From a virus (lineage: Duplodnaviria; Heunggongvirae; Uroviricota; Caudoviricetes): DNA of 30,710 nt. This document shows positions 17,180 through 20,876 of this stretch, piece by piece (within the stretch, counting starts at the first letter, position 1; each line of letters begins with the position of its first letter). Under the pieces are notes generated by a model that was not told the DNA's origin, ran no database searches, and worked only from the letters and a program-made list of their open reading frames with translations. The position numbers were made by a program, and so were the translations under genes. The stretch is from IMG/VR virus record IMGVR_UViG_2529293040_000025, positions 1-30,710 of that record. One strand, 5' to 3'.

Positions 17180-17256
17180 CCGCCATTAGCTCATCGGGAT
17201 AGAGCGTCAGCCTTCGAAGCTGGCTGTGCGGGGTTCAAGTCCCCGATGGCGGTCCA
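17180..17256 (+). tRNA. argN: tRNA-Arg (anticodon TCG)
   Basis: 77 nt; acceptor stem CCGCCAT/ATGGCGG; T-loop TTCAAGT; anticodon loop CTTCGAA; ends CCA. Confidence 0.8.
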
Positions 17257-17269
17257 TTATCAGCATCAT

Positions 17270-17346
17270 GCGTTGTTAGCTCAGTCGGACAGAGCAATTG
17301 CCTTCTAAGCAATCGGTCACTGGTTCGAATCCAGTACAACGCGCCA
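17270..17346 (+). tRNA. argO: tRNA-Arg (anticodon TCT)
   Basis: 77 nt; acceptor stem GCGTTGT/ACAACGC; anticodon loop CTTCTAA; T-loop TTCGAAT; ends CCA. Confidence 0.8.
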
Positions 17347-17436: not shown

Positions 17437-17661
17437 GTGAAAAAACTGATGGTGACGATTGGTCCGTTCGAAACAGAAGTTAGTTTTCGTGTTGTTCAGG
17501 GGGAGAGTGTACTTGTTGAAGATGTATTTCATGGAAAATCAACAGGTCCTTATGTAAAAGAATATCTTATCGACGCCACGGATGAAAATATTGAGGTGGT
17601 GTACGATTCCGTCAATCACCCTGATTTGATCATTAAGGCAAAATTGAAGCCACTTTATTGA
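17437..17661 (+). CDS. small acidic hypothetical protein (74 aa)
   Basis: GTG start 4-5 nt after AGGAGG. Lower GC than the flanks. First gene of a cassette bounded by duplicated terminator-like motifs. Confidence 0.45.
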   Translation: MKKLMVTIGPFETEVSFRVVQGESVLVEDVFHGKSTGPYVKEYLIDATDENIEVVYDSVNHPDLIIKAKLKPLY

Positions 17662-17713: not shown

Positions 17714-17923
17714 ATGTTTGTTTCTGAAGTGTTAATGGAAGATAAGGACAACAAAGGATGGGTTAAAGGTTGGGCTGTGGTAAGAAGCTCGCCCTGGCAT
17801 CTTGTTGGGGTTTTTGCGACAGAGGAAGACGCAGAAACGGAAGCAAGAAAGATGGGAGATAAGTACGAGGTTCACTATGGCTCGCATCGAACAGGAAGTG
17901 ATGATTTTGTCTGGGGGGAGTAA
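17714..17923 (+). CDS. small acidic hypothetical protein (69 aa)
   Basis: Strong AAGGAG RBS 7 nt upstream; followed by a hairpin and T-run terminator-like motif. Confidence 0.5.
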   Translation: MFVSEVLMEDKDNKGWVKGWAVVRSSPWHLVGVFATEEDAETEARKMGDKYEVHYGSHRTGSDDFVWGE

Positions 17924-18112
17924 CAGTCGTTTAACCCCAGAATAATCCCGTAACTGAGGTCGCTATTGGCGGCCTTTTTTGTATCCGCGCCACGCCCGGC
18001 GCATATCAACCACAGAGCCTTTCGGGGGTGAGCTTACGGAGTGGTCAGTGTGACTTTCTCTGTGGGCAGATCGCTCCCGGGCGTTGGCTCACCCACCCAA
18101 AGGAACGTCACG

Positions 18113-18544
18113 ATGTTTGGTATTTTTGGTAAAAAAGCCCGCCGAGCGGCAGTGGAAATTAAAAAGTTTGAGAAACGTGATCTGGCACAGGCGGTTATTA
18201 ATGCTGCCTATCTGGTGGCCTATGCAGATGGTGAATGTGAGGCTTCAGAGAAAGCGAAGATCGAGCAGATCTTGCGTAACCAGCCTGCGTTGTCCGCGTT
18301 TACGTCAGAAATTAATGCGATTAGCGCAACCATTATCGGTCAGCTGGATACGAACTTTAAAATTGGTCGTCGAGCGGCATTGCGTGAAATTGAAGATGTG
18401 AAACACGATACGCGTGAAGCGGAAGATGTGCTGGATGTGGCGGTGGCCATTGCGGAGGCAGACGGCGAAATTGAGCCGGAAGAGCGCAAGGTGCTGGAAG
18501 AGATTGCCGGTGTTCTGGGTCTTCGTCTGGAGAATCACCAGTGA
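18113..18544 (+). CDS. TerB-like (tellurite-resistance TerB domain) protein
   Basis: Paired AAYLVAYADGECEASEKAKI and AVAIAEADGEIEPEERKVLEEIAGVLGL motifs typical of the TerB fold. Start at ATG 18113 with AGGA RBS; ORF-track start 18041 is an extension. Confidence 0.6.
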   Translation: MFGIFGKKARRAAVEIKKFEKRDLAQAVINAAYLVAYADGECEASEKAKIEQILRNQPALSAFTSEINAISATIIGQLDTNFKIGRRAALREIEDVKHDTREAEDVLDVAVAIAEADGEIEPEERKVLEEIAGVLGLRLENHQ

Positions 18545-18708
18545 CGGTAAAACTGCGCCTGGCTGTGGCTGCACTCCTGCTGTTTCTGGTGGTGATGGTG
18601 GATTTCACCAGCAGAATCATGTCGGTGCTGGCGGATGGGGTGCTGGTCTGCGGCATTGTGGTATTGCTGTGGCCGGTGATAAAAAGAAACAGCCTGCATA
18701 ATGCTTGA
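18541..18708 (+). CDS. small two-helix membrane peptide (55 aa) translationally coupled to the TerB-like gene
   Basis: GTG overlapping the TerB stop (GTGA). Translation VTVKLRLAVAALLLFLVVMVDFTSRIMSVLADGVLVCGIVVLLWPVIKRNSLHNA shows two hydrophobic segments. Followed by a T-run. Below the ORF-track cutoff. Confidence 0.4.
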   Translation: MTVKLRLAVAALLLFLVVMVDFTSRIMSVLADGVLVCGIVVLLWPVIKRNSLHNA

Positions 18709-19022
18709 TTTTTTTATTTGCTGTTTATTAAAAATACTACTGCATGGTGAATCCCCCTGTGCGGAGGGGCGATCAGCAACCAGGTATATGGGATAATCGC
18801 GGATTCAGGTGCTGATACTGAATTCACCGGGAGGCACCCGGCACCATGCTTTGCCGCAAAAGTGTTGTTTCTGTTTTTCTCAAACTATCATCGTTATCCC
18901 TTTATTTCCGGCTGCGCATGGCGTGGCCTTTTTTTTACGACCAGCCACTGGCAGATGGCCATCCTGTAATTTGATTCCGGTTCCGGCTTTTTAACTCTGT
19001 TCCTGTACACGGGAGAAATTCG

Positions 19023-20876
19023 ATGTCGATTAAACATTATGATGTTGTCAGGGCGGCGTCGCCGTCAGACCTTGCGGAAAAGCTGACACACAAACTGAAA
19101 GAGGGCTGGCAGCCGTTTGGTAGTCCGGTGGCCATAACCCCTTATACCCTGATGCAGGCGATTACAGCAGAAGGTGATGTGGTGGTCAGTGGTGCAACTG
19201 AGCCGGATTGGTACTACGTCATCGTACTGGCCGGGCAGTCCAATGCCATGGCTTACGGTGAAGGGCTTCCGCTGCCGGATTCATACGATGCTCCGGATCC
19301 GCGCATTAAACAGCTGGCGCGCCGCAGTACAGTTACGCCGGGTGGGGCTGCATGCAGATATAACGATATTATTCCGGCCGACCACTGCCTGCATGATGTG
19401 CAGGATATGAGTACGCTGAATCATCCGAAGGCAGACCTGAGCAAAGGGCAGTACGGCTGTGTCGGCCAGGGCTTACATATTGCCAAAAAACTGCTCCCGT
19501 ATATCCCGAATAACGCGGGGATCCTGCTGGTACCATGCTGTCGTGGTGGTTCGGCATTCACCCAGGGCGCGGAGGGGACATTCAGTGCGGACACGGGGGC
19601 CAGCCAGGATTCGGCACGCTGGGGTGTGGGTAAACCGTTATATCAGGACCTGATTGCGCGCACTAAAGCTGCATTACAGAAGAACCCGAAAAATGTGTTG
19701 CTGGCGGTGTGCTGGATGCAGGGAGAGTTTGACATGAGCGCCGCCACCCACGCACAGCAACCTGCGCTGTTTACAGCCATGCTGACACAGTTTCGTGCTG
19801 ACCTCTCCGTGTTTAACGCGCAGTGCCATGGTGGCAGTGCTGCAGATGTGCCGTGGATTTGTGGTGACACGACGTATTACTGGAAAAATACATACGCTAC
19901 CCAGTACGACACCGTGTACGGCGGGTATAAAAACAGGGAGAGTGAGGGCGTTTATTTTGTGCCCTTCATGACAGACGGTAACGGCGTCAATACCGCCACT
20001 AACGCACCGGCAGAAGATCCGGATATTCCGGCATCAGGATATTACGGTGCGGCATCGAGAACGAATGGAAACCAGGTATCATCAAACCGCCCGACACATT
20101 TCAGTTCATGGGCGCGCAGGAGCATTATTCCGGATCGTATGGCAACCGCTATTCTGAACGCAGCCGGGCGCACCTCAGCTTTCATCAGTGGTAAGGCACC
20201 GGAAATCAAACCCTCGCCCGGCGGCAACACGCCATCGGGGCCGTCTGAAGATGCATCCGTACGCACAATCTCCCTGTTGCCGACAGCCGGAGAGGCTGCT
20301 GCGCAGGGCTGGACCATTAAGGACGGCGGAATTCAGTTGTCGGGTGGTGTATTTAAGATCGCCAAGCAGAGCAATAAAACCTGGTCCCTGATGCATCCGG
20401 TGGATGACGCAGTCTCCCTGCTGACACGGGGTGGCAGACTGAGCTGTAAGTTTCGACTGTCAGGCGCACTGACCAACAACCAGTTCGGCCTGGGAATTTA
20501 TCTGTATACCGATGTAGCGTTACCTGACGTCGTGGCGATGACCGGGACTGGTAACCCGTTCCTGATGTCGTTCTTCACCCAGACCACAGACGGCAAACTG
20601 AATCTGATGCATCACAAGAAAGCAGGAAACACAAAGTTGGGCGAGTTCGGGAATTACAGTAATGACTGGCAGACGCTGGAACTGGTGTTCACCGCCGGCA
20701 GTGCCACGGTTACTCCGAAACTGAATGGAGTGGCTGGCCCGGCATTCCAGGTCATAAAAGACAGTCTGACACTGGGGCTGAATGCGCTGACGCTGACGGA
20801 TATTACCAAAAATGCAGCGTATGGCGTTGAGATAGAAAGTCTGGTGCTGGAGATAAATGCACCGGCATCATCATAA
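19023..20876 (+). CDS. nanS: prophage sialate O-acetylesterase NanS-p-like (DUF1737 N-terminus plus SASA esterase domain)
   Basis: GQSNAMAYGEG catalytic-serine motif; 617 aa; sits between the tRNA/moron region and the lysis genes, where NanS-p paralogues lie in Stx phages. Confidence 0.75.
   Translation: MSIKHYDVVRAASPSDLAEKLTHKLKEGWQPFGSPVAITPYTLMQAITAEGDVVVSGATEPDWYYVIVLAGQSNAMAYGEGLPLPDSYDAPDPRIKQLARRSTVTPGGAACRYNDIIPADHCLHDVQDMSTLNHPKADLSKGQYGCVGQGLHIAKKLLPYIPNNAGILLVPCCRGGSAFTQGAEGTFSADTGASQDSARWGVGKPLYQDLIARTKAALQKNPKNVLLAVCWMQGEFDMSAATHAQQPALFTAMLTQFRADLSVFNAQCHGGSAADVPWICGDTTYYWKNTYATQYDTVYGGYKNRESEGVYFVPFMTDGNGVNTATNAPAEDPDIPASGYYGAASRTNGNQVSSNRPTHFSSWARRSIIPDRMATAILNAAGRTSAFISGKAPEIKPSPGGNTPSGPSEDASVRTISLLPTAGEAAAQGWTIKDGGIQLSGGVFKIAKQSNKTWSLMHPVDDAVSLLTRGGRLSCKFRLSGALTNNQFGLGIYLYTDVALPDVVAMTGTGNPFLMSFFTQTTDGKLNLMHHKKAGNTKLGEFGNYSNDWQTLELVFTAGSATVTPKLNGVAGPAFQVIKDSLTLGLNALTLTDITKNAAYGVEIESLVLEINAPASS

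Follow-up and report, generated by a model that had tools for sequence, protein, structure and literature searches.

Why should a prophage carry a gene for a TerB-family protein that runs directly into a gene for a very small membrane protein? The question is raised by positions 18113-18708 of IMG/VR virus record IMGVR_UViG_2529293040_000025, a stretch of 30,710 nt (the window, below) that represents a lambdoid, Shiga toxin (Stx)-phage-like prophage. The identity of the pair is close to certain: it is the lambdoid-prophage copy of the phage accessory module tciA-tciB, which is an already named and annotated module and not a new arrangement. The 801 nt around tciAB are 100% identical to the chromosome of Escherichia coli O145 RM9872, where RefSeq gives both genes with exactly the same limits, as a "tellurite resistance TerB family protein" and a "DUF3927 family protein". 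The names tciA and tciB, used in phage records such as that of JLK-2012, derive from phage P1, and the pair was reportedly so named in the 2004 annotation of the P1 genome by Lobocka and colleagues. Tentatively, and as a possible rather than a probable answer, we propose that the pair encodes a membrane-tethered TerB complex of lytic growth, which would tune the ion permeability of the inner membrane and exclude competitors.

Among 5426 complete E. coli genomes, 803 have a full-length tciA and 761 a full-length tciB, with a median of two copies per carrying genome and a maximum of eight to ten, and lineages of Shiga toxin-producing E. coli are prominent among the matches listed. In Stx phages, the toxin genes occupy the same slot that tciAB takes in the window. 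About 15% of complete E. coli genomes contain tciAB, often in several copies, which implies its expression whenever these prophages are induced.

The TerB protein and its coupled partner

On the + strand of the window, which carries all the window features described here, tciA extends from an ATG at 18113 to a TGA at 18542-18544 (143 codons). Its product matches the Pfam family TerB (PF05099) over residues 26-138 (E 1.7e-16, 61 bits, cut-off 24.4) and phrog_632, which is the TciA family in PHROGs. The initial annotation had described a 144-aa TerB-fold protein; the family assignment stands, and the length is 143 aa, 144 being reached by counting the stop codon. A profile of TciA homologues matches the solved TerB structure 2jxu_A (E 1.3e-14), and an AlphaFold2 (AF2) model made with 23 homologues is all-helical, with eight helices and a predicted local distance difference test (pLDDT) score of 87.7. 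A Foldseek comparison of this model placed the TerB-like structures 2h5n and 2ou3 on top with weak statistics (E 0.012-0.5, template-modelling score 0.45-0.62). By sequence, TciA also gave weak matches to DjlA (NCBIfam, E 5e-7, under the cut-off) and DUF533. Because the homologues all start with M-F/L-G, the start at 18113 is favoured over an upstream GTG at 18041. The whole protein has a net charge of -7, with an acidic body and a basic, amphipathic stretch of 22 N-terminal residues (net +6). Two D-x6-E motifs, D39/E46 and D117/E124, are invariant or nearly so in the homologues and presumably correspond to the proposed metal site of the TerB domain.

The second gene, tciB (18541-18708, 55 codons), begins with a GTG that overlaps the tciA stop codon in the sequence GTGA (18541-18544), and a GGAG that can be read as its Shine-Dalgarno (SD)-like site lies within the 3' end of tciA at 18529-18532, 8 nt before the GTG. 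The hydrophobic 55-aa open reading frame (ORF) and its overlap, as initially described, are thus confirmed by the sequence and by the identical RefSeq limits. TciB matches Pfam DUF3927 (PF13064) over residues 3-51 (E 4.3e-17, 62.3 bits, cut-off 25) and phrog_1470 (E 4e-30). Basic residues lie at either end of TciB, and its Kyte-Doolittle peaks, near residues 7-20 and 26-47, agree with the two hydrophobic segments of the "two-helix membrane peptide" that had been predicted, the number of helices being a count from hydropathy only.

Comparison of tciB between the window and JLK-2012 over the first 45 codons gave differences at 16.7 of 38.7 synonymous and 12.3 of 96.3 non-synonymous sites (pS 0.43, pN 0.13, omega ~0.2), and the amino-acid changes are conservative. 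The identical GTGA junction is present in 79 of 83 related loci, comprising 80 from IMG/VR together with JLK-2012, P1 and Pollock. Judged by these substitution and junction counts, tciB is under purifying selection and the junction is beyond chance, as would be expected if the small ORF is a genuine, conserved gene. Among 54 distinct partners, the near-invariant positions are R/K6 (54/54), D21 (53), S24 (48), S28 (53) and D32 (53). R/K6 precedes every alternative in-frame start of tciB, and D21, S24, S28 and D32 form a polar stripe (D-x2-S-x3-S-x3-D) within a 100-degree arc of the helical wheel. The DUF3927 family is small: a search of 1.84 billion proteins gave 62 cluster representatives at E<=0.001.

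TciA-type TerB proteins were found by tblastn in 131 phage records, covering lambdoid phages, the phage-plasmids P1, P7, D6 and SJ46, the virulent N4-like phages Pollock and FSL SP-058/076, Erwinia and Salmonella jumbo phages, and phages of Pseudomonas, Vibrio, Pantoea and Rhizobium; distant TciA or TciB proteins had diverged too far for their alignments to serve in locus searches. When one genome per species was scanned, a small membrane ORF overlapped or abutted the TerB stop in 13 of 13 loci. The partner in 87 further viral loci was a DUF3927 protein in 77, an unrelated protein in nine and missing in one, and its start lay -8 to +4 nt from the TerB stop in 86. The TerB-to-DUF3927 gap is 0 in Pollock, and an overlapping DUF3927 ORF is still present after TerB proteins that are ~30% identical (Pantoea phage LIET2, Salmonella phage Arash). 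Altogether, a coupled small membrane ORF follows TerB in about 180 loci. This is the co-occurrence that the initial annotation had suggested looking for, and it lends strong support to its general idea of a cytoplasmic TerB protein acting with a membrane partner.

Every locus examined is in a phage or prophage, virulent phages included. Prophages of Pantoea, Enterobacter and Salmonella have the pair in the same slot as the window, between the Q antiterminator gene and the lysis genes, and those of Serratia, Dryocola, Pectobacterium and Pseudomonas have it near the integrase or a CI-like repressor. In virulent N4-like phages the pair lies among the early or middle genes, and jumbo phages carry it close to the start of their genomes.

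The unrelated partner belongs to phrog_27356, is 67-73 aa long and gave no match in Pfam. It has a single membrane helix at the N-terminus and a C-terminal domain that contains Cys and carries the conserved motif C-x-W/I-Y-G-Y/W-Q-T-E/D-R ... V-G-C-M-V. In phages and prophages of Pseudomonas this protein is coupled to TerB, with the junction at -4 or +4 (L087 1932-2153; L089 1943-2146; L103 4441-4644; L119-L121, L160, L161, L167, L168). Other arrangements were found in virulent Vibrio phages. In the N4-like phages BUCT194 and MS02, TerB follows TerC (Pfam, E 3e-41), with TerD upstream in MS02, and in phage D505 TerB is followed by a 360-aa protein of the Na/Ca exchanger family (E 4e-28); the small membrane peptide is absent at all of these loci (D505, L088 1999-3081; BUCT194/MS02, L105 876-1895 and L104 1-426).

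A possible role at the inner membrane

These facts fit a cytoplasmic TerB protein and a co-produced integral membrane partner acting at the inner membrane in lytic development, and they are compatible with superinfection exclusion in lytic growth. In the complex that we propose, TciB would form a small, probably oligomeric helical hairpin in the inner membrane, both of its termini facing the cytoplasm, and translational coupling would supply TciA in fixed proportion to it. Both TciB and the basic helix at the N-terminus of TciA would anchor TciA to the membrane on the cytoplasmic side, with the TerB domain serving as a ligand- or cation-sensing regulatory part, and the complex would alter or stabilise the inner membrane of the lytically infected cell in its ion permeability and its energised state. 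Expression would be late and Q-dependent, with a leader RNA that masks the ribosome-binding site as an additional gate. The likeliest pay-off would be the exclusion of superinfecting phage DNA and of pore-forming colicins, which would echo the Phi and PacB phenotypes of the ter operon, and the function would be an accessory one, plaque formation having no need of tciAB.

The ter operon has been linked to phage and colicin resistance (PMC4319500, PMC7371120), and published work also connects TerB with membrane-associated stress; phage Ter genes have been proposed to serve in competition with superinfecting phages (PMC7824862). A preprint (bioRxiv 10.1101/2025.09.30.679545) proposes that TerB moves back and forth between the cytoplasm and the membrane, and describes TerB domains in the Shango, Bunzi and Dionysus defence systems. 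A CRISPR interference screen of P1 found tciA, tciB and tciC to be non-essential (PMC10695390). The proposed complex is further supported by the finding that a cation transporter, either TerC or the Na/Ca exchanger, can adjoin TerB where the small partner is missing.

The P1 genes tciA-tciB-tciC (PHROG 632, 1470) resemble the window in families, order and tight coupling, with a one-base overlap in P1; the TciA proteins of P1 and the window share 41.5% identity, and P1 TciB is homologous to the TciB of the window. However, P1 has a third gene, tciC (35 aa, one helix, phrog_23152), whereas no 35-aa tciC-like ORF was found 3' of tciB in the window, where an STnc100-family RNA is present instead. 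Moreover, P1 expresses its genes from the C1-controlled ban operon and has, by the covariance model described below, no leader RNA, whereas the window has a Q-dependent late transcript with a leader. The TerB protein of the ter operon, terZABCDE(F), is homologous to TciA over the full length, and both are cytoplasmic proteins paired with a membrane protein. The membrane partner in the ter operon is the multi-pass TerC in place of a 55-aa peptide, and some phage TciA homologues are still located beside TerC and TerD, as in the ter operon.

As described in the preprint, Dionysus (DinA, the TerB-like DinB and the pore-forming DinC), Shango (SngA) and Bunzi (BnzA) also place a TerB domain beside membrane proteins and have a proposed role in membrane surveillance. 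Compared by description, these systems consist of three or more genes, are encoded by the host and have large effectors, whereas the carriers of tciAB are phages, virulent ones included. In the N-terminal region of DjlA and in DUF533/YebE, a TerB-like domain is tethered by a membrane helix of its own within one chain, while the tether in the window would be a separate, translationally coupled peptide, and there is no J domain; by analogy, such self-tethered domains fit TciB as a detached tether. An analogy only is offered by lambda RexA/RexB and by T4 Imm and Sp, small inner-membrane proteins that block superinfection with or without a cytoplasmic partner. No sequence or family relation of these proteins to TciA or TciB was found in searches of Pfam, PADLOC and PHROGs.

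The comparative picture, in which TerB is obligately coupled to a small membrane protein that can be exchanged, a cation transporter occasionally takes the place of this protein and virulent phages carry the module, converts a label that has stood "by homology" for 20 years into a two-gene hypothesis that can be tested. In a bolder variant, TciB oligomers would form a minimal phage-encoded cation-conducting pore that is gated by the TerB domain of TciA, with a ring of the invariant D21, S24, S28 and D32 at the hairpin turn as its filter, and TciB would be interchangeable in function with the TerC or Na/Ca-exchanger partners of the Vibrio phages. If this were true, phage TerB modules would represent a widespread family of "viroporin plus regulator" devices.

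Several observations weigh against the membrane-tethered complex. The TerB protein of a Pseudomonas juntendi prophage, 73-76% identical to those of Serratia and Pectobacterium, has the unrelated partner at the same GTGA junction, and such swapping of partners argues against a tight, specific interface, as do PMBT3, TM16 and L111, where TerB has no membrane neighbour. In addition, orphan DUF3927 genes without TerB occur in phage 434 and in many E. coli genomes. The phage 434 copy (L002 2967-3125) is homologous from window position 18575 only, its N-terminus having been replaced, and its annotated start is a TTG after the gene for a 247-aa multi-pass membrane protein (phrog_1521); about 40% of the E. 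coli genomes with any DUF3927 match have only partial matches of this orphan type (H174-H180). Physical contact between TciA and TciB found no support in an AF2 model of the apparent TerB-DUF3927 fusion P0127, which was uninformative (the TciB part a single long helix at pLDDT 52-73, in a frameshift artefact), or in database fusions. The apparent fusions P0127, P0184, P0250 and P0292 are frameshift or chimeric calls at the GTGA junction, and among 1.84 billion representative proteins the longer matches P0250, P0265 and P0292, considered as real fusions, proved to be chimeras or frameshifts. Ion conduction by TciB is pure inference, and the literature on tciA, tciB and DUF3927 yielded annotation-level mentions and no functional experiment; authors of phage genomes call the role of these genes unknown (PMC4319500; PMC8421299).

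Among the alternatives, it is unlikely, if still a serious candidate, that the module acts in counter-defence or host take-over, serving the replication of its own phage through Ca2+ or Mn2+ homeostasis or by neutralising membrane-acting abortive-infection effectors. The early or middle position in virulent N4-like phages and the position near the genome start in jumbo phages would suit such a role, as would TerC/TerD and the Na/Ca exchanger as neighbours in Vibrio phages and the lytic-phase expression both in P1, where the ban operon is repressed by C1, and, as predicted, in the window. Against this role, growth of P1 on a laboratory host is normal when the module is lacking, even though that host may not have the relevant defence. 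By sequence alone, counter-defence and the tethered complex are inseparable.

Abortive infection, which the initial annotation had suggested beside superinfection exclusion as the task of a sensor with a membrane effector, is decidedly improbable. Here TciA would sense an incoming phage and open TciB as a depolarising pore, and the lysogen would die as with RexA/RexB or Dionysus. The small, hydrophobic TciB with its two invariant Asp residues would be in keeping with a pore, TerB domains occur in Shango, Bunzi and Dionysus, the last with a pore-forming membrane protein, and expression in the lysogen is plausible for those prophages that carry the pair beside the repressor or integrase. However, strictly virulent N4-like and jumbo phages carry the module as well, and in the window the pair belongs to a predicted late transcript, in which the leader would sequester the ribosome-binding site and for which no promoter match was found. 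Moreover, the supposed effector can be swapped for an unrelated protein or lost while TerB is kept, and PADLOC-DB v2 gave no significant match, the best hit of TciA being PDC-S48 (E 0.0056 over 36 residues) and TciB having none. These points likewise weaken the sensor-and-effector reading of the initial annotation where it concerns superinfection exclusion by the lysogen.

A holin- or antiholin-like TciB that is modulated by TciA and adjusts the timing of lysis is very improbable. Lambdoid prophages do place the pair just upstream of the lysis cassette, and the topology predicted from the sequence, with two helices, both ends inside and a charged C-terminus, is like that of class II holins, but the pair is unlinked to lysis genes in P1 and in N4-like, jumbo and Pseudomonas phages, the prophage has a class II holin of its own, and P1 tciB is non-essential. 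Lysogenic conversion to tellurite or oxidative-stress resistance, suggested by the homology to TerB of the ter operon, is hardly credible, given the predicted late-phase expression, the doubts of authors who have described phage terB genes (PMC8421299) and the finding that TerC, TerD, TerE and TerZ are not among the neighbours in the window (Q, three tRNAs, two small ORFs, esterase, holin).

The leader RNA upstream of tciA

The only feature of this locus that seems to be undescribed is a structured leader RNA at 18005-18112, directly upstream of tciA, which scores 119.9 bits with a covariance model. The approximately 110 nt 5' of tciA are conserved in prophages of E. coli, Pantoea, Enterobacter, Klebsiella and Salmonella and in virulent Erwinia-type jumbo phages; further copies are located at L085 1397-1503, L092-L097 and L316-L333. 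A 17-nt core motif of the leader occurs 119 times in the viral collection, with a TerB start 93-101 nt downstream in 107 cases, the other 12 comprising five at contig ends, four chance occurrences and three rearranged loci. A search of 17985-18112 against Rfam gave no family match at E<=1. Hits of the covariance model are confined to loci whose TciA shares at least ~66% identity with that of the window, and the model found no leader in the P1, Pollock, Pseudomonas, Vibrio, Serratia or Pectobacterium loci.

In the predicted structure, helix P1 pairs 18010-17 with 18058-65, a long-range helix pairs GGGUGAGC (18026-33) with GCUCACCC (18087-94), a further helix pairs GGAGUG (18038-43) with CGCUCC (18072-77) and a small hairpin pairs 18044-47 with 18051-54. 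Finally, an anti-SD:SD helix pairs CCUUU (18018-22) with AAAGG (18099-103), the Shine-Dalgarno sequence of tciA. Since helix P1 crosses the long-range helices, the leader would form either a pseudoknot or a pair of alternative folds.

In a plain MAFFT alignment of 17 leaders, 89.3% of cells pair as predicted, compared to 38-52% with slid partners, and double-sided changes are found in 14 pairs, compared to 4.4 in shuffles, a value reached by none of 500. A model-guided alignment of 20 distinct leaders gave 90.1% pairing, compared to 37-48% in slid controls, and double changes in 21 of 31 pairs, counts that are inflated by related sequences and by a fitting that favours the fitted helices. The double changes are seen throughout the long-range helix (eight of eight pairs), in three anti-SD:SD pairs and in four pairs of helix P1, which lies outside the covariance model and still has them. 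A nested RNAalifold model with an outer helix GAGCC/GGCUC was rejected; this helix is broken in L317 and L319, which keep GGGUGAGC/GCUCACCC by compensatory changes.

Diverged leaders with fully compensated helices precede genes for a P22_AR_N antirepressor-like protein, an ANT/KilAC antirepressor, a Bro-N protein and a protein of 246-268 aa, and each of these copies is also preceded by a terminator and a small GC hairpin, as in the window. They are located at L314 8816-8934, L215 8876-8993, L256 3830-3947 (-), L217 14231-14346, L332 2576-2688, L093 7469-7563, L220 3719-3815 and L261 157-257 (-). Their position before other phage genes suggests that the leader is a general phage element and is not specific to tciA.

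The simplest reading of the conserved pairing is that the leader may be a cis-acting translational repressor that silences risky accessory genes. Dangerous accessory genes would thereby be kept silent until a specific signal appears in lytic growth, and the element would be common to antirepressor genes, from temperate lambdoid to virulent jumbo phages. If the leader were a real switch, it would explain the silence of membrane-active and antirepressor genes in lysogens. That both propositions hold jointly, TciAB being a viroporin with its regulator and the leader representing a new class of phage translational switch, is rather improbable.

The cassette and its surroundings

The pair lies between the Q and tRNA genes on one side and the esterase and lysis genes on the other, and the accessory (moron) position given to it in the initial annotation is therefore upheld. 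Directly 5' of the cassette, a terminator scan and folding identified a terminator-like GC hairpin with a T run (17956-17976), and the order of terminator and leader is also found 5' of tciA in other prophages. A small GC hairpin, GCGCC...GGCGC, which folds with 5 pairs and is kept in most sequences, occupies the gap between terminator and leader (17987-18002). The 3' end of the cassette is marked by another terminator-like hairpin with a T run (18910-18928), identified by the terminator scan before the esterase gene. No sigma-70 match was found between the upstream terminator and tciA. With terminators on both flanks and no such match, expression should depend on Q-antiterminated late transcription, and tciAB of the window should thus sit in the Q-dependent late transcript.

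Upstream, the Q antiterminator gene (Pfam Antiterm) ends at 16594 and is followed by three tRNA genes (17097-17346), with a fragment of a truncated DNA methylase pseudogene between them at 16943-17056, as marked by RefSeq in the identical RM9872 region. Two small ORFs precede the cassette. The first, of 74 aa (17437-17661), matches phrog_2571 over positions 100-171 of 291 only and may be a gene remnant, to judge from this partial match, and the second, of 69 aa (17714-17923), matches phrog_4280 over its full length. A link between tciAB and tRNA genes, considered on the basis of the window, P1, JLK-2012 and ChrisDB, was rejected, as no tRNA is nearby in 11 of 13 genomic loci; the adjacency probably reflects shared placement in accessory regions. 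The tRNA genes near tciAB are at L003 1616-1769 and 3201-3276, L001 3756-3989, and L085 887-1354 and 2948-3277.

Downstream, a gene for a SASA-type sialate esterase (Pfam) occupies 19023-20876, and the lysis genes, with an annotated class II holin, lie 3' of it on the same strand. Between tciB and the esterase gene, a small RNA of the STnc100 family (Rfam RF02076) was identified at 18716-18885 with 102.4 bits (gathering score 47, E 1.3e-22). A 2026 preprint describes the related PasD/STnc100 family just upstream of an esterase gene, as in the window. The Pas small RNAs were ruled out as equivalents of the tciA leader, since PasD/STnc100 lies upstream of the esterase gene and PasA and PasC lie between the esterase and holin genes. 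A 31-codon ORF at 18701-18796 is covered by the STnc100 RNA. In strain EDL933, copies of STnc100 are expressed without induction, and one of them has been verified by Northern blot (PMC5331693).

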